Part shown: positions 6,007 to 17,901 of the stretch, one piece after another
Numbering within the stretch: position 1 is the first letter of the stretch
How the letters are laid out: each line of letters begins with the position of its first letter
From: a virus
Taxonomy: Duplodnaviria; Heunggongvirae; Uroviricota; Caudoviricetes
Virus record (IMG/VR): IMGVR_UViG_642973540_000001
Length of the DNA: 20,576 bases
Direction: 5' to 3' (one strand)
Notes under the pieces: model-generated
What the model was told of the DNA's origin: nothing
The model's database searches: none
Seen by the model: only the letters and a program-made list of their open reading frames with translations
Position numbers and translations under genes: made by a program

Positions 6007-6474
6007 ATGATTCAGGAAACTATCGTAGTAAACATCAATGACCTGTCAAGCAAAGTTGCTTACGTTGCTGATGTTGTCAAGGCTCAGTTCACAGGTCGCA
6101 TTTTCCGTGCTGTAAACGTGAAAAAAGATGGTGCGCTTCGTGAGTACCGTGCTCTGACTGGCGTTTCCAAGCATGTAAAAGGTGCTGGTTCAACAACCGC
6201 ACACAAACCTGAACTGCTGACCATCTACGATATGGGTCTGGCTTCAACTCTCGGTGCAGAGGGTATTCAGGCTGCTGGCGCTCCTTACCGTTCCTTCAAC
6301 ATGGAGACTACTCTGATGTTGGAATTCGTCAAGGGTGACAAGAAGACTACCTACGTCTTCATTGATGAAGCAACCAAATCAGAAATTGCTGATGCGAAAA
6401 TTAAAGCTGCTGTAGACGCAAGCTCAAGCATCACCAATCAATCTGTTGCTATCCTGCTTGGCGCTCTGAAATGA
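6007..6474 (+). CDS. Hypothetical protein, possible WYL-like (Sm/SH3) fold
   Basis: 155 aa, GAGG RBS, own promoter. KKDGALRE...IYD...YRSF pattern. ORF is well supported; the fold call is tentative. Confidence 0.75.
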   Translation: MIQETIVVNINDLSSKVAYVADVVKAQFTGRIFRAVNVKKDGALREYRALTGVSKHVKGAGSTTAHKPELLTIYDMGLASTLGAEGIQAAGAPYRSFNMETTLMLEFVKGDKKTTYVFIDEATKSEIADAKIKAAVDASSSITNQSVAILLGALK

Positions 6475-6668
6475 GTGACCTCTTAGCGCGGTTTGATGAT
6501 TTACTCTCTCATCTGAACTCTGAAGAAAATGGTATGGCTTTAGAGTTTCGTGAAGAGTTGGTGAAAGCATCTCACAAGCTGGAAAAATTAGAAGCACTTG
6601 AGAATTACGGTGTGGATAATTGGGAAGGTTACGGAGAAGCAGTCTCCAGTATTTCCGACGACGAATAA
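6471..6668 (+). CDS. Small acidic phage protein (GVDNWEGY motif)
   Basis: 65 aa, ATGA overlap with the upstream stop. Confidence 0.75.
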   Translation: MSDLLARFDDLLSHLNSEENGMALEFREELVKASHKLEKLEALENYGVDNWEGYGEAVSSISDDE

Positions 6669-8481: not shown

Positions 8482-9264
8482 ATGGTCGTTGACATTTTCA
8501 CTGGTGATTTGTTCACAGAGTTTCGTAAAGGTAACTTTGATGTAATCGCACAAGGTTGTAACTGTCATAACATGATGGGTGCAGGTATCGCAGTGTACTT
8601 TGCAAAGTTCTATCCTGAGTGCTTCAGTGCTGACACACAGGCATACGACTATTACACAGAGAAGGATTCTCACAAGGAAATGTTGGGTAAGATTTCTGTT
8701 GCCCTTACGAAAGACGGCCTTGTAGCTAACCTCTACACCCAATTCAACGGTGGTCGTAACGCTGATTACTTTGCTATGGCAGAGTCTTTCAAGCATCTTG
8801 ACGATTTCCTTTTAGAGAAAATCGGGAAAGGCTATCGTTTAGGTCTACCGTTTATTGGGGCTGGAATCGGAGGGCTTGATATTAATGCGGTCATTGCTCT
8901 GGCTGATTCTGTTCTGGTTAATGGTGATGTGTATTTCATTCGTCATCCAAATGATGTTAACAATTTCATCATCAGTAAACAGTTCAAAGCCAAGACGCCA
9001 GCTAACCCACGTTACACCTATCTCTTATCAGATGGGTTATTCTTCTCGGTGTGTAAGGATGGACGGGTTGATGAGTTACCCTCCAAGTTACCCTTCCAGC
9101 ATCAAAAGCTCAAGAGTTTGAAATGCTTAGGTGATGGTAAGTTAGGTGGCAAAGTGTTCACTAATAAATATGAGCGTGTATTAGAGAGTGCTCTTATTAT
9201 ACCTGCTGAGAATTGGGGTGGACAACAACTTAATATTCAGTTGGGTGATAACATACCTGAGTAA
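8482..9264 (+). CDS. Macrodomain (ADP-ribose processing) protein with C-terminal extension
   Basis: GDLF, IAQGCNC...MGAGIA, VANLYTQ and LPFIGAGIGG are canonical macrodomain motifs. About 100 extra C-terminal residues are unassigned. Confidence 0.85.
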   Translation: MVVDIFTGDLFTEFRKGNFDVIAQGCNCHNMMGAGIAVYFAKFYPECFSADTQAYDYYTEKDSHKEMLGKISVALTKDGLVANLYTQFNGGRNADYFAMAESFKHLDDFLLEKIGKGYRLGLPFIGAGIGGLDINAVIALADSVLVNGDVYFIRHPNDVNNFIISKQFKAKTPANPRYTYLLSDGLFFSVCKDGRVDELPSKLPFQHQKLKSLKCLGDGKLGGKVFTNKYERVLESALIIPAENWGGQQLNIQLGDNIPE

Positions 9265-9274
9265 TATATTTAAC

Positions 9275-9299
9275 AGCCTCCTTAATCGGGGGCTTTTTT
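9275..9299 (+). terminator. Intrinsic terminator ending the left gene block
   Basis: AGCCTCC-TTAATC-GGGGGCT followed by a T-run. Confidence 0.85.
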
Positions 9300-9318
9300 A
9301 TTTTCATTACCGGACAGC

Positions 9319-9460
9319 TTTTTCATTTTCAATTTGTGCATAGGAACTGGCAACGTTTTTTATTTTAAAATCGTGCATAAGGTCTGGCAAGAAAAATCAT
9401 TTTCGATTTGTGCATAGAAGGTCTGGAGGGGTTTTTCATTTTGAATTTGTGCATAGAGAA
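9319..9460. repeat. Four tandem 37-39 bp repeats
   Basis: Core GTGCATA at 9336, 9373, 9410 and 9449. Each is preceded by an ATTTT..AT..-type T-rich tract; the first three are followed by CTGG. Confidence 0.9.
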
Positions 9461-9594
9461 GGGAACCGCTAAATAACGCCCACCCTCCCCTCTACCGTGT
9501 GCCGAAATATCATCCGGCAGCAGTATCATTTTCAGCCTTGTAAGCATTTTGTCTTTACATTCAGAGACTTAGCCAGCCCCTCAACATGTGAAAT

Positions 9595-9624
9595 AGTATA
9601 AGCGATTTGATGAAATAACGTCAA
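9595..9624 (-). promoter_or_regulatory. Leftward sigma70-like promoter
   Basis: Minus strand reads AAAAAATCGC-TTGACG-N18-TATACT. Confidence 0.7.
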
Positions 9625-9658
9625 GCGATTTTTTAAAGAATTTTTATTTTATTTTCTG

Positions 9659-9687
9659 TTGACTTTAAATCTGGCTACCTTTATATT
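9659..9687 (+). promoter_or_regulatory. Rightward sigma70-like promoter opening the small-ORF island
   Basis: TTGACT-N17-TATATT with an AT-rich UP-like tract at 9625-9658. Confidence 0.8.
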
Positions 9688-9723
9688 TTCCGACATCGAA
9701 ACAACCTTACCGGAGTAAAAGAA

Positions 9724-10071
9724 ATGCAAGATTCATTTATTAGAATGTGTAAAGAAGTGGTTAACAACACTTGCCCTATTAATGTTATTTGCAACCCTGC
9801 TAAACATTCATACCATACCGCGATTAATTCAAAGGTATCTAATGAGGACGCTTACAAATACTTTAAAGGGTGTGTTGTTCGTTGCCCTGATGAAAAAGTT
9901 TTAGCAACAGTGTCACACGTTATCATTACACGTGCTGATAAAAACATTATTGTATTCGGTTGTTATGAGGATGCAAGCAACTACTATAAAGAGCTTTTCC
10001 CTGTTGATGAAGAAAGAGAAAAGTTTTTAGAAAAACAGTTTGACAATGGTTATCTGGTTTTAGTAAAGTAA
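9724..10071 (+). CDS. Hypothetical early protein
   Basis: 115 aa, GGAG RBS, leader CGAAACAACCTT. Confidence 0.75.
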   Translation: MQDSFIRMCKEVVNNTCPINVICNPAKHSYHTAINSKVSNEDAYKYFKGCVVRCPDEKVLATVSHVIITRADKNIIVFGCYEDASNYYKELFPVDEEREKFLEKQFDNGYLVLVK

Positions 10072-10109
10072 CCCCATCGAAACGAAACAACCTTAAACAG
10101 GAATCAAAA

Positions 10110-10775
10110 ATGAATACTCCATTTATCGTAAACAGCAAGCAACGTGCAATTCTGGCCGACAACTCTTTCAACCCTGCAATCTCAAAAGAGGGTAAAAACA
10201 TTCGGGAAGGTGTAACGGTTCAGAAGTTTTTAAACCGTATGGCTATTTATTGTGAAGGTCTGAACCCGAAAGCTGAGGTATTTTTAGAAGCCCGTGAGTA
10301 TTCACAATCGCGGGACGTTTACGGCAACCGCACGGCGCATTATTGCGTTACTGTTATGATTGACGATAAGAAAGCGGGTAAATATTATCATCCGTTTGAA
10401 ATCGTGGGAAGCGGTTCACGCCGTCAACAAGTTGGCTATGGTAAAGACAACGGCGACATTACATACAGCCTTGAAAAGTTGGGCTATCCGGTTGAACTCA
10501 TTCAGCGTTATGAAGAGACAAGCGGCGCTGTTCGTTACACTTACAAACTTACAGCTTTAGAAAATATTGAAAAACTGTTTGACGTGGCAACGGGCAATCT
10601 GTACTATAGCGCAACGGTTGAAGGTTACGAGGTTAAAGCGCCTTTGTATTCTTTGATTGAAAAGAAAATTAAAAATCTTGTCTCACGTCGTCGTGATTCA
10701 AGCCGTAAGTTTCCGGTAACTATCAGCCGTCACAAAGGTGATAAAGTTTCAAAAGTTACCCGAATTAATTTCTAA
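10110..10775 (+). CDS. Hypothetical early protein
   Basis: 221 aa, conserved leader AAACAACCTTAAACAGGAATCAAAA. Confidence 0.8.
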   Translation: MNTPFIVNSKQRAILADNSFNPAISKEGKNIREGVTVQKFLNRMAIYCEGLNPKAEVFLEAREYSQSRDVYGNRTAHYCVTVMIDDKKAGKYYHPFEIVGSGSRRQQVGYGKDNGDITYSLEKLGYPVELIQRYEETSGAVRYTYKLTALENIEKLFDVATGNLYYSATVEGYEVKAPLYSLIEKKIKNLVSRRRDSSRKFPVTISRHKGDKVSKVTRINF

Positions 10776-12940: not shown

Positions 12941-13174
12941 ATGGAAGGTTTAGCGGGTATTCTGTTTGTGTTGATGGTTGTCGTGGTGATTCTCTGGTTA
13001 GCGTTACTACCTGCAATCATTGCAAACAAGAAAGAAAGCACTAACAAGGGTTTTATAATTGGCTTAACAATCATCGGCCTGTTTTTCTTCCCTTGCTGGA
13101 TTATCGCGCTGATTTGGGCTATTGTTGATTCATCAGCTAAACCCCAAAAAGTGATTTTAGTCAAAGAAGTTTAA
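12941..13174 (+). CDS. imm: Superinfection immunity protein, T4 Imm-like
   Basis: 77 aa from ATG 12941. LLPAIIA...WIIALIWAI and C-terminal AKPQKVILVKE parallel T4 Imm as recalled (LP..IA, W....IW, QP.QVIII.E). Confidence 0.75.
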   Translation: MEGLAGILFVLMVVVVILWLALLPAIIANKKESTNKGFIIGLTIIGLFFFPCWIIALIWAIVDSSAKPQKVILVKEV

Positions 13175-13261
13175 AAAGTGCTTTACACGGTGTTTAACTT
13201 TCGATAGTATAAGCACCAGATAAAGAGCTTTTACAAACAACCCTTATAAAGGAATCAAATC
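13175..13261 (+). promoter_or_regulatory. Promoter-stem-loop-RBS cassette A2
   Basis: Near-identical to A1. TTTACA (13182)-N17-TAGTAT. Confidence 0.85.
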
Positions 13262-13849
13262 ATGCTATGTGTTCACGGCACTACCTTAGAAAACTTCAAA
13301 ATGATGATTGCCAACGAGGGCAAGCCGTCCGGTGCATGGAACGTGTCAGAATGTGATGCCGCCACCTATTTTTATCCGCTGGATAAAATCGCTAAAGCTG
13401 AATGTTTAGAGGCTGATGATTTTGATTCAGAATCAGAATATCAAGACGCTATTTTACAGGCCGCTAAACGTCACGCAAGGGGCAATGCTATGACAACAGC
13501 CGCAATTGCTGAACGTGACACAAAACTAATTGTTTTCCTTGCCGATGTCCCTGAGCACCTTTTAGAGGATGATTATTCGTGTGACAACATGGCCGATATT
13601 GCCTCTTTCATCCATGAAGATGATTTTAAGGTTGAAATGATTCAAAGAATCTGGCAATATAGCTTTTTCGGTATCTTTAGCCCTTATTGTGTTCAACCTG
13701 ATAACCCTTACATGATGTCAATGAGTTATCATCTTGAACAAATGGCAAGGGCTATTCAGAATTCAAACGCTTATCTTTATGACACTATTGAGAATTCATT
13801 AGATGAGAGTGAAGAGCAAAAAGGTTTAGAATTTTTGATAAACATCTAA
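13262..13849 (+). CDS. Hypothetical early protein, candidate ADP-ribosyltransferase-like fold
   Basis: 195 aa. N-terminal VHGTTLENFKMMIANEG, then TYFY. ORF is solid; fold is tentative. Confidence 0.75.
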   Translation: MLCVHGTTLENFKMMIANEGKPSGAWNVSECDAATYFYPLDKIAKAECLEADDFDSESEYQDAILQAAKRHARGNAMTTAAIAERDTKLIVFLADVPEHLLEDDYSCDNMADIASFIHEDDFKVEMIQRIWQYSFFGIFSPYCVQPDNPYMMSMSYHLEQMARAIQNSNAYLYDTIENSLDESEEQKGLEFLINI

Positions 13850-13927
13850 AAAATCGCTTTACAGGGGGTTATGGTTATGAGATTATAACCCCGTCGAAAC
13901 AAACAACCCTTATAAAGGAATCAAAAC
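13850..13927 (+). promoter_or_regulatory. Promoter-stem-loop-RBS cassette C2
   Basis: AAAATCGC-TTTACA (13858)-N17-GATTAT, GGGGTTAT/ATAACCCC inverted repeat. Confidence 0.85.
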
Positions 13928-14254
13928 ATGCTGCACATTGCCCACATTCAAAACTACCGTTCACGCACTGCATCAGTTAAACGCTATGGCAAGTTTAAAG
14001 CGATGCGTTTTGAATGGTCTTGTTATCGTAAAATCCTGTCTTTTGACCGCTCAAAGTTCGTTTGTCAGTCTGAACCGCTGGAAAATCGTAAACTTGAAGC
14101 CCTAGCCCGTCACGCTGGTTTAGTTCTGGCAAAACACGGTCAAGACGTGGCAAATGATTTTGTTAACCGTTGCTTTACCGCTTTACCTTACACAAATAAT
14201 CTGACAGTTGGCCTTTTTATTGAACGTGTAGAATTTTTCGCAAATACTCACTAA
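13928..14254 (+). CDS. Hypothetical early protein (basic)
   Basis: 108 aa behind cassette C2. Confidence 0.8.
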   Translation: MLHIAHIQNYRSRTASVKRYGKFKAMRFEWSCYRKILSFDRSKFVCQSEPLENRKLEALARHAGLVLAKHGQDVANDFVNRCFTALPYTNNLTVGLFIERVEFFANTH

Positions 14255-14326
14255 AAGCGATTGCAAAGGGGTTATGGTTATGAGATTATAACCCCGTCGA
14301 AACAACCCTTAAAGAGGAATCAAAAC
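14255..14326 (+). promoter_or_regulatory. Promoter-stem-loop-RBS cassette C3
   Basis: TTGCAA (14261)-N17-GATTAT, same inverted repeat, GAGGAATCAAAA RBS. Confidence 0.8.
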
Positions 14327-14560
14327 ATGTTGCATCATCAAAGCGGTATGGTATGTTTAGAAGGTGGAATCGAAATCACTTTACCGAAACTGCAAGAAAT
14401 CTATCTTGATTGGATTAACAACTTTCTAACCGTTGAACGTTTCGCAGAATACTACGCCTTAACCGTTGAAGAGGCTAACGTAATCATTCAAGCGGGGCAT
14501 AAAATACAAGGGCTTTACGCTCAAATGCTCAAAGACTTACAATCGCTTGTTTTGAACTAA
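14327..14560 (+). CDS. Small phage protein (YLDW.NNFLTVERFAEYY type, HTH-like)
   Basis: True start ATG 14327; the TTG at 14261 is the -35 box. 77 aa. Confidence 0.75.
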   Translation: MLHHQSGMVCLEGGIEITLPKLQEIYLDWINNFLTVERFAEYYALTVEEANVIIQAGHKIQGLYAQMLKDLQSLVLN

Positions 14561-14642
14561 AAAGAGCTTTACAGGGTGTTTAGAGATTGATAATCTAAGC
14601 ACCTGATAAAGAGCTTTACAGTAACCCCCGTTAAGGTGCAAA
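14561..14642 (+). promoter_or_regulatory. Promoter-stem-loop-RBS cassette B2
   Basis: Core identical to B1. TTTACA (14568)-N17-TAATCT. Leader is divergent (AAGGTG RBS). Confidence 0.85.
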
Positions 14643-14921
14643 ATGAAACTCAGTGATGCAGAATCAAAGACAGTTAACCGCTTAATGCGTGACATCGGTT
14701 TTACTATTATGACCGCCTCAAAACATGCTGTTATGGAGTGGTACAACGGCGTAATAGACGGTAAAGAAAAGATGGTAAACCTTTGGCGCTTCAATGGTGA
14801 ATTACAGTTCGAACTTTACGACAACACACTAAAAAGCCCTGTAAAGTCTACAAAGGATTTAGAACAATCTTACACGATTTGGGCAAACGGTCACTTTATC
14901 ATCAACCCCAAAAAGGTATAA
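14643..14921 (+). CDS. Hypothetical early protein
   Basis: 92 aa behind cassette B2. Confidence 0.75.
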   Translation: MKLSDAESKTVNRLMRDIGFTIMTASKHAVMEWYNGVIDGKEKMVNLWRFNGELQFELYDNTLKSPVKSTKDLEQSYTIWANGHFIINPKKV

Positions 14922-14925
14922 AATC

Positions 14926-15171
14926 ATGGTACTCTTTCCAACTATTCTTTTAATCGCTTCAAGCTGTTCTAACCTGAATTCGTGCCAATTCTCGCAGCTT
15001 GATAGCTGGCAAGATGTCCCGGCTAGTGTGAGTGTTCAGGATTGCATAGAACGCCGCAAAGACTTTCCAGATGAGGAAACAGGCTGTTTTGTGTTAGCGG
15101 GTGAAGATTCTAAAACTCTCTCACTGGAAAACGTCGAAACAGGGGAATGGGTAGAAATCGACAAAGATTAA
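14926..15171 (+). CDS. Small, possibly exported Cys-containing protein
   Basis: 81 aa, hydrophobic N-terminus ending ILLIASSC, four Cys, acidic tail. Confidence 0.65.
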   Translation: MVLFPTILLIASSCSNLNSCQFSQLDSWQDVPASVSVQDCIERRKDFPDEETGCFVLAGEDSKTLSLENVETGEWVEIDKD

Positions 15172-15186
15172 ATTATTTTTCATCAG

Positions 15187-15274
15187 GGGGCTTTACAGCC
15201 CCTTTTTCGTTTTGCTATACTCTTTTCATCGGTTCAGCACTGAACCACAAACAACCCTTAAACAGGAATAAAAC
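15187..15274 (+). promoter_or_regulatory. Fused terminator/promoter cassette E
   Basis: GGGGCT-TTAC-AGCCCC-TTTTT terminator whose loop region holds TTTACA (15192)-N18-TATACT with extended -10 TG. Then hairpin GGTTCAG-CA-CTGAACC and the conserved leader. Confidence 0.8.
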
Positions 15275-15847
15275 ATGAAAAAGTCAATCGCAATCAACCT
15301 TATCCGTTCAGCTTCAGTAATGACCCGCATCAACAAAGAAAGCTGGACTTTTCAGACTTCCTTTAGCGGTGAGTTCGCAGTAATCAACAAGGCTTACAAC
15401 GGCGTTTATTTCGTCCACACTAAAGGCAACAAGGCAACAACTCACAAAACCTTTATGGCGGCTGTTGCTTCAATCTTAGACCTTTACTTGTCAATCATTC
15501 ATGATTCTATGCGCCGTAAGATTCAGGAGCTTAAAAGCCGTTACAACTCCTTAGAAACTATGCGCTACACTCACAAAGAAAACCTGAAACGTTTTGTTAT
15601 CGCTGATGAAGTTTTAGACATCCTGCAAGGCGTAAACGGTGAAGTAGTGACCGACATCTTAACGGGTAACTTTGCAACCTATCGCACTGAATTAGCCGCT
15701 AAAGCTGCAATGAAACACCGCTACATTTCAACGGCCTACACTCTGGAAAGCGTAATAGACCGGATGTCTAAAACCACGTTTAAGACTCTGACACTGTTAC
15801 AAGCCAACTTGCCAGAATCTTTCAAAGTAACCACTTTCGACGCTTGA
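15275..15847 (+). CDS. Hypothetical early protein
   Basis: 190 aa; its TGA stop lies inside the next TTGACA. Confidence 0.8.
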   Translation: MKKSIAINLIRSASVMTRINKESWTFQTSFSGEFAVINKAYNGVYFVHTKGNKATTHKTFMAAVASILDLYLSIIHDSMRRKIQELKSRYNSLETMRYTHKENLKRFVIADEVLDILQGVNGEVVTDILTGNFATYRTELAAKAAMKHRYISTAYTLESVIDRMSKTTFKTLTLLQANLPESFKVTTFDA

Positions 15848-15911
15848 CAGTGAACAGTAAGAGGGGTTAAAATCCCCTCATCAACAAAACCTTATAAAGG
15901 AATCAAAAAAC
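15844..15911 (+). promoter_or_regulatory. Promoter-stem-loop-RBS cassette D1
   Basis: TTGACA-N18-TAAAAT, with the -10 enclosed by GAGGGG...CCCCTC. Confidence 0.85.
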
Positions 15912-16151
15912 GTGAATATCTTAAAAACTAACGATTTATGCCGCTTGATGCACAGTGATTTAGGTAAACCGTTCGTTTACTTTATTGAAGAGGGTAAAAC
16001 CTACTCTTACACGGTAAACCGTTTCGGGGCTTACGCTGCTAAAAACGGCCTTTTGATGAAGTCTAAAAAGTTACTTATCATCGCTGATGAAGATGAAAAG
16101 CCAACGATAGCCGTAAAAGTTTATTTCTACAAAAAGCCTAAAAACGTTTGA
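15912..16151 (+). CDS. Hypothetical early protein
   Basis: 79 aa, GTG start after AGGAATCAAAAAAC; stop lies inside the next TTGACA. Confidence 0.7.
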   Translation: MNILKTNDLCRLMHSDLGKPFVYFIEEGKTYSYTVNRFGAYAAKNGLLMKSKKLLIIADEDEKPTIAVKVYFYKKPKNV

Positions 16152-16219
16152 CAGTGAACAGTGAGAGGGGTTAAAATCCCCTCATCAACAAACAACCCCT
16201 TAAACAGGAATAAACAGAA
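16148..16219 (+). promoter_or_regulatory. Promoter-stem-loop-RBS cassette D2
   Basis: Near-identical to D1. Confidence 0.85.
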
Positions 16220-16471
16220 ATGGCTATCAACGTTACCGAAATTTCCAAAATCTCCATTCAGTCCGAAAGCGTTTATCTGTTGCACCGTGTTGTAACTGAC
16301 ATTTGGGACATCAAAAAAGTAATCCTTGACCAATGGGAAATTCAGGGGTTTAACCTTGAAAAGGGTAACTATCACATTGATTTTGAGTCGAAAGAGGCCG
16401 CTTTAGAACATTACCGCCAGATTGCAAATGGCATCATTGACAATCATCAAGCCGCTTTAAATTCAATCTAA
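16220..16471 (+). CDS. Hypothetical early protein
   Basis: 83 aa, last ORF of the island. Confidence 0.75.
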   Translation: MAINVTEISKISIQSESVYLLHRVVTDIWDIKKVILDQWEIQGFNLEKGNYHIDFESKEAALEHYRQIANGIIDNHQAALNSI

Positions 16472-16488
16472 TCAGACACTTAACAAAA

Positions 16489-16522
16489 AGCCCTTGACAT
16501 TCTACTTGACAGGGGCTAAAGT
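16489..16522 (+). promoter_or_regulatory. Promoter with inverted repeat facing the non-coding block
   Basis: TTGACA (16494)-N17-TAAAGT. AGCCCTTG (16489) pairs with CAGGGGCT (16510). Confidence 0.55.
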
Positions 16523-16616
16523 GTTTTAAGGGTTTTCTCTTAATCCACCCTTTCTATATTCTGTATTCCTCTCTTTAAAGACTCTTTACCATTCCTTTGA
16601 TTATCGTCTAATTGCC

Positions 16617-16914
16617 TTCTAAATGGTATTCTAAACCGTTAACACTGGCATAAAGTCCCGCTATAGTGATTCTTCTAAACAGTCTTCTAAACCGTTCCAC
16701 TCCTTCCCTAACAGTGGGAACCCCACAGGGAACCAGATTAAACAGCCTTCTATAACCCTTCTAAATCGCATTCTAAGCGGTTCTAAGTCTACCCCTTACG
16801 ATTGGGTTAGTAACCCTTCTAAGTCTCTTCTAAGAGCATTCTACGGCTTCAATTAATGATTGCTTTCACACTTGCTTTCTGTTAGTCTTCTAACCCCTTC
16901 TAAGCGTCTTCTAA
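16617..16914. repeat. Phased TTCTAA array
   Basis: 12 exact copies at 16617, 16629, 16673, 16685, 16759, 16771, 16781, 16817, 16828, 16888, 16898 and 16909; 10-12 bp apart within clusters. Confidence 0.9.
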
Positions 16915-17043
16915 GATGAATCACTGATTGCCTTATGTTCTGAATGTAGACTAAAAAGAGGCTTCAATCATTCGATTCAGAGTCTTCAAAGGTTGTCAAG
17001 ATACTGGATAATTTTACGCTATGGTTAGCCACTTTTACATTTC

Positions 17044-17426
17044 GTTAACAACTTTTTAACATCTCTGCAACATTCTATTCAGTCATCTGCATAACATCTT
17101 GACAACATTCTGTTAACATTTCTGTTACAACTCTTTAACGATTCATTAACACAATCCTGTTAAGAGTCTGTTACAACCTTGTTAAAAATTCTCGATACAA
17201 ATTAACATTTCGATAACATGGTGATTCCTCTTAAACGGCCTTTGTCAAGTCTAATAAATTCTCTTCAAACCCTTGACAATCCTGATTAGTTGAGTTGTTA
17301 AGACCCTGTTAAAATCCTGTTAAGATTGTTAAAGAGAATGGGTAAATGTTAACGGATTAGACGAATTGTTAAGAGCTTTAGAGAGTTGTTAAGAGCCTGT
17401 TAAGAGAATGTTGCAGATATGTTAAG
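17044..17426. repeat. Mirror-arranged, phased TTAACA / TGTTAA arrays
   Basis: AAC cores at 17047, 17058, 17069, 17093, 17104, 17115, 17137, 17148. GTTAA cores at 17297, 17308, 17319, 17328, 17348, 17368, 17388, 17399, 17421, plus a GTTGCA variant at 17410. Confidence 0.85.
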
Positions 17427-17648
17427 ATTTTGCAAAGGAACGGTTAACTTCTGAGAAGCGACCACTAAGCAGATATACAATTAATGTCAAAAATTGCATA
17501 AATCTTCAAAGTGACTACTCAATTAACAGTAAAGAACAGTGATTCAGATACCCTGTCAGATATGATGTGAACCCTTGATAGCACTGGTTTAGAGAAGTGG
17601 TACTGTTAATTTTTAAAAAATAGAAAATTATCTGAAAAGTTACTGACT

Positions 17649-17862
17649 GTTAAGGAAGGATGTTAAGACGTAGGTTAAGATTGATTTTAAGGCACTTCTC
17701 AGCCCTTCTCAGAGGACTTCTCAGCGAAGATAAGCAAACATATAGCTTACCAAGAGAAGCCCGTACAGAGGCTTATGAGTGGCTTCTCACGAATCCGTAC
17801 AGAAGACTTGTAGGAGATATGTTAAGAGGTGTGTTAAGGGGTCGGTTAAGAAAGGGGTTAAG
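17649..17862. repeat. GTTAAG array (12-bp period) and CTTCTCAG repeats
   Basis: GTTAAG at 17649, 17662, 17674 and at 17821, 17833, 17845, 17857. CTTCTCAG at 17695, 17705, 17717. Confidence 0.85.
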
Positions 17863-17873
17863 AAATTTTTTAG

Positions 17874-17901
17874 AAAAATAAAAAGCCTCTGAAAAGAGGC
17901 T
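17874..17901 (-). terminator. Intrinsic terminator for the leftward genes
   Basis: Minus strand AGCCTCT-TTTC-AGAGGCT-TTTTATTTTT. Confidence 0.85.

Follow-up and report, generated by a model that had tools for sequence, protein, structure and literature searches.

The four direct repeats that lie in the 460-bp gap separating a Tk.4-like 'phosphatase' gene from the first early promoter of an Erwinia phage (genus Kolesnikvirus, Felix O1-like) are very probably a DNA-level protein-docking array, neither an RNA device nor a genome end. The window, meaning the whole 20,576-nucleotide stretch that was analyzed, is the rIIA-opened start of this phage. The array is present in it, is unique in the genome, is conserved among related genera and lies apart from the terminal repeat. 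We infer protein binding: the four direct sites (about 25–28 bp each, TCATTTT-N6-GTGCA) would be bound as double-stranded DNA by a sequence-specific DNA-binding protein, in an array placed directly past the terminator of the Tk.4-like gene and about 200 nt before the first early promoter. Coordinates are collected in Table 1.

Table 1. Positions in the window of the repeats, the neighboring gene and signals, the predicted RNA hairpins and the mapped genome end.
Feature	Position	Strand	Details
Tk.4-like 'phosphatase' gene	8482..9264	+	phrog_335 'phosphatase', E 1.4e-75
Intrinsic terminator of upstream operon	9275..9300	+	hairpin 9275-9294 (7 pairs, 5 GC) and T run
Array copy 1	9319..9343	+	core TCATTTT-N6-GTGCA 9323-9340; 37.4 bits
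Array copy 2	9356..9380	+	core 9360-9377, one mismatch (TTATTTT); 30.2 bits
Array copy 3	9393..9417	+	core 9397-9414; 31.0 bits
Array copy 4	9432..9456	+	core 9436-9453; 36.5 bits
C-rich tract	9479..9496	+	G-rich run in the putative leftward RNA
Hairpin 2 of putative leftward RNA	9493..9525	-	-14.1 kcal/mol, z -3.16
Hairpin 1, predicted 5' end of putative leftward RNA	9557..9587	-	-12.0 kcal/mol, z -2.95
Leftward sigma-70-type promoter (plausible)	9595..9624	-	TTGACG-N18-TATACT, 10/12 matches
A+T-rich stretch	9625..9658	.	between back-to-back promoters; read from sequence
First early promoter	9659..9687	+	TTGACT-N17-TATATT; heads small-ORF cassettes
Physical genome end (short direct terminal repeat); outside element	17050..17488 (approximate)	.	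SPARTY mapping

For whole-genome comparisons, the near-identical sister phage phiEa104 (84,565 bp) stood in for the genome of the window. Viral contigs were pattern-scanned for the array, giving 39 loci, of which the 30 on Felix O1-like contigs were used; the other nine, on non-Felix-O1 contigs, carried unrelated repeats and were dropped. The 30 other-genera loci were often near-identical and represented 20 sequence clusters. A distant 88-kb contig (L031/G002) had no near match among named phages. The public runs listed as containing the stretch numbered 24, all assembled contigs, and none was recorded as RNA. Contigs of four of these runs (X1, X16, X17 and X20) showed no read starts, no joints and no repeat-number variants within the array; contig cover in X20 was almost nil over 9155–9715, which proves nothing. 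No published description of the array was found in the literature covered, which did not include the phiEa21-4 genome paper (Lehman 2009), and searches on Felixounavirus transcriptomes and promoters, Ounavirinae origins, Felix O1 iterons and Ea21-4 RNA-seq returned nothing on it. In the accessible part of the Felix O1 genome paper the direct repeats named are different ones and do not include the array, and the accessible main text of PhageMaP makes no mention of intergenic sites in its section on Bas63.

A repeat search recovered four copies starting at 9312, 9349, 9386 and 9425 (72–100% identical to the reference copy), in agreement with the four repeats spaced at 37, 37 and 39 that the original prediction had described, and TRF gave a period of 37 with a score of 95. 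The search also listed a fifth 'copy' (63%) at 9220–9251 within the upstream gene, which was regarded as chance. The exact 11-mer TTTGTGCATAG occurs three times in the 20,576-bp window, every time within the array; at up to two mismatches it was found seven times against 7.66 expected, which is not above chance, so that the signal consists of exact, clustered copies. Using a 25-nt weight matrix on the window and the whole of phiEa104, the four copies scored 30.2–37.4 bits and the next best site 12.8. The core at up to two mismatches was found in phiEa104 as four clustered sites in the array and 17 scattered, unclustered ones, while 20 shuffles gave 2–14. One two-mismatch site outside the array, at 64885 in the gap of the replication module, falls within a 5' leader beside a start codon and is no copy of the repeat. 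The core had been called near-palindromic, a description that fits TGCA only: in other genera the flanks do not stay palindromic, and the repeat search found no inverted arms around the direct repeats.

In blastn searches 270 phage records were matched, and outside Kolesnikvirus only the repeat part (query 23–115) aligned, at 72–77% identity. Conservation and copy number in relatives had been proposed as a check, and the array was found to be kept: among the window and 30 contigs (n = 31), 27 sequences have four copies, three have three and one has five. All copies are on the same strand in these 31 sequences, the sole exception being an extra minus-strand match in L031. The internal N6 is fixed and copies are spaced at 36–45, 73–75 or 148 nt. 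When variable columns per 40 were counted in five Kolesnikvirus sequences, the terminator and array (9259–9458) had 2–4 and the coding flanks 6–12, with one bin of 2; the array thus varies less than the flanking genes, a sign of purifying selection.

The surroundings of the array are also shared. The upstream gene had no Pfam match at E ≤ 0.01, and its homologues in relatives are annotated as Tk.4, phosphatase or, in one relative, macro domain; it is the left neighbor of the array in every genus examined and precedes it in L031 too. The predicted hairpin at 9275–9294 was found, followed by a T run. This terminator is invariant in seven of seven Kolesnikvirus sequences, and a terminator precedes the array in every case; the stem at 9275–9294 read on the minus strand contains a C-A mismatch with no T run after it. 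Past the last copy, 27 of 30 loci have a G/C-asymmetric tract, which may be of either polarity. In Kolesnikvirus this is the C-rich tract, which is invariant in the genus and in whose best 30-nt window G minus C is -14, as extreme as the most skewed of 2000 random window segments; roughly half of the relatives show the opposite polarity, and the sequence from array to early promoter exists in two unrelated versions, C-rich or G-rich. The rightward 'island' promoter was found where it had been described, back-to-back with the leftward one. From the start of the last copy to this promoter the distance is 222 nt in 3/3 Kolesnikvirus loci and 188–198 nt in 22 of 23 other-genera loci. The downstream flanking gene is a genus-specific ORF with no assigned function. 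The window contains no tRNA genes and no Rfam matches at gathering thresholds, and Rfam returned only two sub-threshold, terminator-like matches in 9200–9720.

These features bear on what a bound protein would do. A phage or host protein on the four sites might control the first early promoter (by shut-off, activation or looping) or insulate the cassettes against read-through from the upstream operon, with no role in replication, a tentative reading that we consider only slightly less likely than the origin proposed below. It is favored by a distance from last copy to early promoter that stays constant although the intervening sequence has two unrelated versions, by a terminator always preceding the array, and by the lack of a skew signal and of an initiator gene nearby. 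Operators usually overlap or adjoin the promoter that they control, whereas these sites are about 200 nt away; many other early-cassette promoters (9.7–16.5 kb) are without such sites, and no regulator gene for the array was identified among the proteins scanned.

The most likely job of the docking array, though still a tentative reading, is that of an iteron-type replication origin or a related nucleoprotein platform that would be opened with the help of transcription close by. The early promoter of every genus points away from the array and keeps a fixed distance to it, with the strongly G/C-asymmetric tract in between; in Kolesnikvirus an extra leftward transcript, bearing two hairpins (one at its 5' end, the second conserved) as well as a G-rich run, would enter the array and could act as an R-loop or primer-type activator, or else be a small regulatory RNA in its own right. 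Many relatives lack the leftward promoter and the C-rich polarity that a G-rich RNA requires, so transcription into the array is not the general mechanism, and the fixed distance to the early promoter fits transcription control equally well as an origin. At least three repeats of 17–28 bp in the same orientation at one locus are expected of iterons, and the array has four. Helically phased spacing (about 11 or 22 bp) is also expected, and was not found: the spacing is 37, 37 and 39 here and 36–148 in relatives. A search for a cognate initiator among 58 proteins gave no Rep, O, DnaA-like or HTH family, and no DNA-binding family was named in these proteins, from the window and phiEa104, by Pfam or PHROGs. 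In phiEa104 the GC skew tracks gene direction, with no switch at 9.4 kb and a lower value to the right of the array, and the replication genes are more than 20 kb from the array and have their own divergent promoter region. Sites for IHF, CRP, Fis, Fur, Lrp, ArgR, sigma-54 and sigma-E were compared as consensus sequences with the motif by eye, and none fits.

The leftward promoter of the original prediction is present on the minus strand as described. Promoter-like sites in 8900–10200 numbered six, compared with 3.7 ± 1.9 in shuffles, and the leftward promoter alone is at chance level. In nine of nine Kolesnikvirus sequences the -10 hexamer is invariant and the -35 is TTGACG or TTGACC; 5 of the 18 spacer positions vary in the genus. 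It is absent from 22 of 23 other-genera loci, and the 23rd has one weak match (9/12) at another position. Since the repeats are kept where this promoter is missing, it cannot explain them. The motif AAAAAATCGCT, reported upstream of both this promoter and cassette C2, does have exact copies at 9624–9634 (minus) and 13848–13858 (plus), but the sharing is not significant: at up to one mismatch three copies were found where 0.95 would be expected, a number also attained in 9 of 100 shuffles. The element is a plausible promoter and appears to be a Kolesnikvirus-specific add-on.

Folding of the minus strand from this promoter gave two hairpins. On the plus strand, the hairpin 1 region folded at -2.6 kcal/mol (z 0.05). 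Hairpin 1 includes four G-U pairs, with one GU-to-GC change and zero breaking changes among eight distinct sequences, and 9539–9578 has no variable columns in five Kolesnikvirus sequences. Hairpin 2 forms in five of five sequence variants, including ST-3 with its 7-nt deletion; two pairs change from GC to AU on both sides, and one pair changes from CG to UG. The first ~130 nt (9457–9588) gave -40.8 kcal/mol (z -2.25) on the minus strand and -23.3 (z -0.83) on the plus strand. For the proposed 5' structure, 268 of 268 cells were paired with two double-change pairs, and the covariation score was reached by none of 500 shuffles, in a test comprising eight distinct, closely related sequences only and a structure derived from those same sequences. 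Hairpins confined to the minus strand and accompanied by compensatory changes make a genus-specific leftward RNA plausible, and a small folded leftward RNA is probably made in Kolesnikvirus. Between 9588 and 9250 no terminator-like site was found on the minus strand, leaving this RNA without a defined 3' end. It had been stated that no ORF with an RBS lies downstream of the promoter; there is indeed no Shine-Dalgarno sequence, although a 60-aa ATG ORF exists on the minus strand from 9547 to 9365. This ORF is broken by the 7-nt deletion in ST-3 and by a stop codon in Rouille/Coenus; judged by these alignments it is not conserved and the region is not coding.

The original prediction also offered an RNA of ~290 nt, transcribed from the leftward promoter, whose four repeats would titrate, as decoy or sponge, an RNA-binding protein or a protein of host defence. 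This is very unlikely. The promoter is conserved within Kolesnikvirus, the 5' leader is structured in a strand-specific manner, and the array as minus-strand RNA is less structured than shuffled sequence (z +1.31), as a sponge for a single-strand-binding protein could be. In addition, Kolesnikvirus has a ProQ/FinO-domain gene of its own (PF04352; 66.1 bits, cut-off 27), present in six of six Kolesnikvirus records and in none of nine other Ounavirinae searched; as co-occurrence of this gene with the promoter amounts to one lineage event, it has little weight. Against the sponge, the repeats persist in genera without the leftward promoter, the RNA is not bounded by a terminator and has no Rfam match, and its complementary matches elsewhere in the genome are no more numerous than chance predicts (five of at least 11 nt, 5.15 expected). 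That the repeats are the functional part of an RNA is not supported: they occur without the promoter in 22/23 other-genera loci, are unstructured and vary in spacing. CRISPR-type arrays have repeats of 28–37 nt and spacers of similar length. A CRISPR-like mini-array or RNA anti-CRISPR was considered and rejected, the period here being 37–39 nt with only 12–14 nt between 25-nt cores.

The suggestion of an iteron-like array at a genome end or terminase site survives in one part, the repeat array being real; that the array is a genome end or a terminase recognition site (pac/cos-type) is extremely improbable. According to the accessible text of its report, the sister phage SPARTY has a 439-bp terminal repeat determined by PhageTerm (PMC8928762). 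In the SPARTY record bases 1–439 equal bases 85056–85494, and base 1 corresponds to approximately 17488 of the window. The terminal repeat therefore maps to ~17050–17488, about 7.6–8.2 kb from the array, in a region where TTCTAA and TGTTAA repeats are dense. The end of one X16 contig, at 17467, is close to this mapped position. Records of EAP4 and BoyaciRG1, both from one laboratory, have duplicated start and end sequence over ~8.7–10.2 kb of the window, and several metagenome contigs break within 100–210 nt of the array, as a terminus there would predict. The EAP4 and BoyaciRG1 overlaps, however, have unequal lengths, internal jumps and non-identical copies, like assembly overlaps; among the broken contigs one ends in sequencing adapter and another is chimeric, and a 55-bp end repeat in G002 is the size of an assembler k-mer overlap. 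In the records of coliphages E9 and H12, for which direct terminal repeats were determined by PhageTerm (PMC11737134), the array is 6.7–6.8 kb from a record end.

The position of the array relative to the mapped end raises the further idea of a cis-acting stop or anchor for T5-like two-step entry, possibly through membrane-bound DnaA on TTATGCACA-like ends, which we regard as quite unlikely. Once the first ~8 kb, with the small early-gene cassettes, had entered, the incoming DNA would be held by a host or early phage protein bound at the array. The distance from the mapped left end to the array is 7.6–8.2 kb (about 9.5%), which places it exactly where the block of small self-promoted ORFs has its inner edge, and every copy in Kolesnikvirus differs from TT(A/T)TNCACA by one mismatch. 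The N position of this DnaA box is invariably C in the repeats. The window shows no enrichment of DnaA boxes with one mismatch (48, where 60.9 would be expected), and in Felixounavirus the box-like end matches at 6–7 of 9 positions whereas the non-box half, TCATTTT, is invariant. Two-step injection is not known to us from any Felix O1-like phage. In the accessible portion of a preprint by Davison (10.1101/866236), the first-step boundary of T5 is described as a strongly conserved region of repeats that is not translated and contains DnaA boxes; the sites given there are paired boxes in inverted repeats, whereas the array has direct repeats without inverted arms. That the array brakes a T5-style entry, with ~8 kb (~25 small early genes) entering first, then a pause and then the rest, has a low probability. 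If true, the Kolesnikvirus leftward RNA and the ProQ/FinO-like protein would be a second layer of control.

Felix O1-like phages are widely used in Salmonella typing and in biocontrol of Salmonella, E. coli and fire blight. As a single non-coding element that is better preserved than its neighboring genes in every genus examined, the array is the best available handle on either the replication origin or the early-gene control of these phages. In phage engineering, it should stay intact when the adjoining variable early cassettes are swapped. If the pairing of leftward RNA and ProQ/FinO-domain protein were true, a virulent phage would carry its own RNA together with an RNA chaperone; this is a lead only.

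Comparison with known systems was made for the docking array and for the putative RNA. The T5 iss, as described in the accessible part of the preprint (10.1101/866236), resembles the array in having untranslated repeats that are better conserved than the neighboring small ORFs, in DnaA-box likeness, and in a position ~8–9% in from a genome end at the inner edge of the small early genes. According to the same portion, it differs in being made up of palindromes and nested inverted repeats that span 1.2 kb within a terminal repeat of 10 kb and in having DnaA boxes paired 3 bp apart, whereas box-likeness in the array is weak and the array is outside the 439-bp terminal repeat.

In FinP/FinO, an antisense RNA acts with a ProQ/FinO chaperone. 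The putative leftward RNA is similarly small and promoter-proximal with two stem-loops, in a genus with its own ProQ/FinO-domain gene; unlike FinP, its structured part overlaps no antisense target gene and has no terminator hairpin with a 3' tail, it has no Rfam similarity, and the RNA-protein link is co-occurrence in one lineage only. Transcription-activated origins include the T7 primary origin, the T4 oriF/oriG R-loop, ColE1 RNA II and mitochondrial CSB II. As in these, the Kolesnikvirus promoter would fire into an A+T-rich non-coding stretch, the putative transcript has conserved 5' hairpins and a G-rich run ~90–110 nt from its start, and the array borders the early region, close to one terminus of a linear genome that has a terminal repeat. 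It differs in that the promoter is of the host sigma-70 type and absent from sister genera that keep the array, and in that the polarity of the G/C tract is reversed in about half of the relatives.

Iteron-type origins include the phage lambda ori with four O-protein sites, P1 oriR and T4 oriE. The array differs from these in having no adjacent or internal initiator gene and non-palindromic sites, and from classic iterons (~22-bp phasing) in its spacing of 36–148 nt, which is not helically phased. It resembles them in being a single locus of several same-direction repeats of ~20–28 bp, usually four, in an A+T-rich, non-coding region that has promoters nearby and is more conserved than the neighboring genes.

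The segment 9200-9720 matched 232 phage records (blastn), of which 34, from Erwinia, Salmonella, Hafnia and Enterobacter phages, had at least 80% query cover at 88-99.8% identity; all eight of these 34 whose taxonomy was looked up belong to Kolesnikvirus (subfamily Ounavirinae, Felix O1-like). Because the coordinates of phages phiEa104 and SB18 agree with those of the window to within 1 base, the window is the initial 20.5 kb of a Felix O1-like genome opened at rIIA. The array and its promoters sit in a gap of 460 bp, bounded by a Tk.4-like "phosphatase" gene and the first small early ORF (table). The four repeats and their spacings, the terminator and both promoters (the leftward one and a rightward TTGACT-17-TATATT) were found as and where the original prediction placed them.

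Features of the gap and its borders, in window coordinates
Feature	Position	Strand	Details
Tk.4-like "phosphatase" gene	8482-9264		phrog_335
Terminator	9275-9294		
Array copy starts	9312, 9349, 9386, 9425		spacing 37, 37, 39
Hairpin 2	9493-9525	minus	present in 5 of 5 sequence variants
Hairpin 1	9557-9587	minus	-12.0 vs -2.6 kcal/mol on the plus strand; four G-U pairs
Leftward promoter	9624-9595	minus	TTGACG-18-TATACT
First ORF in a long series of small early genes	9724-10071		

The exact 11-mer TTTGTGCATAG occurred three times in the window, each time within the array. With a 25-nt matrix the four copies scored 30-37 bits, and the best non-array site in the window and the 84,565-bp phiEa104 genome scored at most 12.8 bits. 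Outside Kolesnikvirus, roughly 200 phage records (Escherichia, Salmonella and Shigella) aligned with the gap by blastn, but only over the repeat part (query 123-215, 72-77% identity). When viral contigs were scanned for a pattern of two copies, 39 loci came up; 9 with unrelated repeats were excluded and 30 Felix O1-like loci were kept, which form 20 sequence clusters and hence are not 30 independent observations. Repeat number was compared among these relatives, as originally proposed, and the repeats were kept: a count of the core TCATTTT-N6-GTGCA, with up to 2 mismatches allowed, over the window and the 30 loci gave four copies in 27 sequences, three in 3 and five in 1. The core followed the strand of the upstream gene throughout, the sole exception being one extra minus-strand match in the distant contig L031; the inner N6 had constant length in all copies, and copy spacings were 37/37/39, 73/39/45, 75/41/45 or 36/148/38. 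Among 61 distinct copies, positions T1, A3, T4-T6, G14, T15, G16 and A18 were invariant or nearly so, and the core was preceded by a G-rich block and by a run of A or T. With a fixed bipartite core, fixed copy number, free spacing and single orientation, the copies look like putative protein-binding sites on DNA, unlike folded RNA. The same bipartite core with free spacing, and a minus-strand fold weaker than that of shuffled sequence (z +1.31), speak against the earlier proposal that the repeats are the functional part of an RNA; neither strand of the entire 293-nt stretch gave a folding signal (z -0.71 and +0.31). Two repeat units contain minus-strand promoter-like matches, TTGCCA-17-TAAAAT (9362-9390) and TTGCCA-17-GAAAAT (9325-9353), which are probably incidental, since their -35-like part lies in non-conserved spacer and is absent from other genera.

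Among five Kolesnikvirus sequences, the terminator and array (9259-9458) had 2-4 variable columns per 40 and 9539-9578 had none, vs 6-12 in the coding flanks (2 in one bin), so the gap is more strictly kept than the adjoining genes. All genera share one order: the terminator comes first, followed by the four sites, then a tract of strong G/C asymmetry and finally a rightward sigma-70-type promoter. In 27 of 30 loci the tract attained |G minus C| of at least 10 over 30 nt (background mean 7.1, 95th percentile 11); read on the array strand, 15 of these tracts were C-rich and 12 G-rich. The last copy lay 222 nt from the rightward promoter in all three Kolesnikvirus loci. In other genera the distance was 188-198 nt in all but one of 23 loci; the exception, L047, reads 243 nt because the strict pattern misses its last copy. 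One of two metagenome contigs (L026 and L035) ends in sequencing adapter directly past the C-rich tract, and the other turns into GC-rich foreign sequence past the third copy; several contigs of the same sample break 100-210 nt from the array. These breaks likely reflect co-occurring strains with two alternative spacer versions.

The leftward promoter was in the same place in all nine Kolesnikvirus sequences examined, with an invariant -10 hexamer, a -35 of TTGACG or TTGACC, and a spacer in which 5 of 18 positions differ between the two species. Among the 23 loci of other genera, the same scan gave only one minus-strand promoter match, weak (9/12) and in a different place, in the viral-contig locus L036. 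By sequence comparison, the putative leftward promoter is a Kolesnikvirus feature, and the array is older and more widespread. The upstream motif AAAAAATCGCT, said to be shared with another cassette, is real, but its sharing is not significant. Past the leftward promoter, folding was confined to the minus strand: 9457-9588 gave -40.8 kcal/mol (z -2.25) vs -23.3 for the plus strand (z -0.83). Two pairs of hairpin 2 carry double substitutions (GC to AU) and a third a single one (CG to UG); in phage ST-3 a 7-nt deletion joins its two stems into a single 8-bp stem. All substitutions in predicted stems kept pairing (268/268 cells), a count from 8 distinct, closely related sequences from which the structure itself was derived, so this evidence for a predicted structured leader is suggestive, not proof. 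A terminator scan found no terminator for the putative leftward RNA, Rfam gave no relative, and no complementary targets scored above chance. The claim that no ORF with a ribosome-binding site lies downstream was nearly right: a 60-aa minus-strand ORF (9547 to 9365) does exist, but it lacks a Shine-Dalgarno sequence; it was rejected as a gene, being disrupted by the 7-nt deletion in ST-3 and by a stop codon in Rouille/Coenus.

A 153-aa ProQ/FinO-domain protein (PF04352, 66.1 bits, cut-off 27) is encoded outside the window at phiEa104 83526-83987 (38526-38987 of L012, our phiEa104 sequence), and its gene was present in 6/6 Kolesnikvirus records searched vs 0/9 other Ounavirinae. A virulent phage carrying its own predicted RNA chaperone suggests that it may have its own RNA partners too. 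Elsewhere, a 65-aa ORF (6471-6668) matched the T7 gp5.9 RecBCD-inhibitor family (PF25708, E 1.7e-15), and phiEa104 gp091 (L012:19193-19669), an HNH endonuclease with an AP2-type DNA-binding domain, adjoins the DNA polymerase gene, as expected of a homing endonuclease.

The alternative that the array marks a genome end did not hold. The announcement of Hafnia phage SPARTY gives a T7-like direct terminal repeat of 439 bp, from PhageTerm (PMC8928762). The SPARTY record, whose base 1 falls at window ~17488, carries this repeat at both ends; the repeat thus maps to ~17050-17488, within an ORF-free stretch between convergent gene blocks (16472-17900, 1.2-1.4 kb) that is crowded with short repeats. 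The array is thus separated from the physical left end by 7.6-8.2 kb and borders the early-cassette block on its inner side. A 613-bp repeat was reported for a Felix O1-like coliphage (PMC6454146), and direct terminal repeats from PhageTerm for coliphages E9 and H12 (PMC11737134), in whose records the array lies 6.7-6.8 kb from one end. The duplicated record ends of EAP4 and BoyaciRG1, which cover the gap, were rejected as termini, being irregular assembly overlaps. TTCTAA occurs 12 times in 16617-16909, TGTTAA 16 times in 17111-17832 and plus-strand GTTAAGA 12 times, all in 17159-17857; in L031 the interval from the four-site array to the early promoter is itself occupied by a similar TGTTAA cluster. 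Plus-strand GC skew is negative at 13000-17000 (to -0.18 at 16-17 kb, phiEa104) despite plus-strand genes.

We tentatively rank first an iteron-type origin aided by neighbouring transcription, which would fit the single locus, four sites, A+T richness, strand-asymmetric tract and flanking promoters; in Kolesnikvirus, a putative transcript with a G-rich run would enter the array. GC skew gave no support for an origin at the array, the replication genes are distant, no DNA-binding or initiator family was found among 58 proteins (Pfam and PHROGs), and one-mismatch DnaA boxes in the copies were neither above chance nor conserved. The fixed distance from array to early promoter places second, at only slightly lower probability, a transcription-control or boundary role. 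In the accessible portions of the literature on Felix O1-like phages, the Felix O1 genome paper included, no paper describing the array was found. By analogy with T5, the array might instead, though much less probably, act as an entry stop, a reading that is attractive on position alone.
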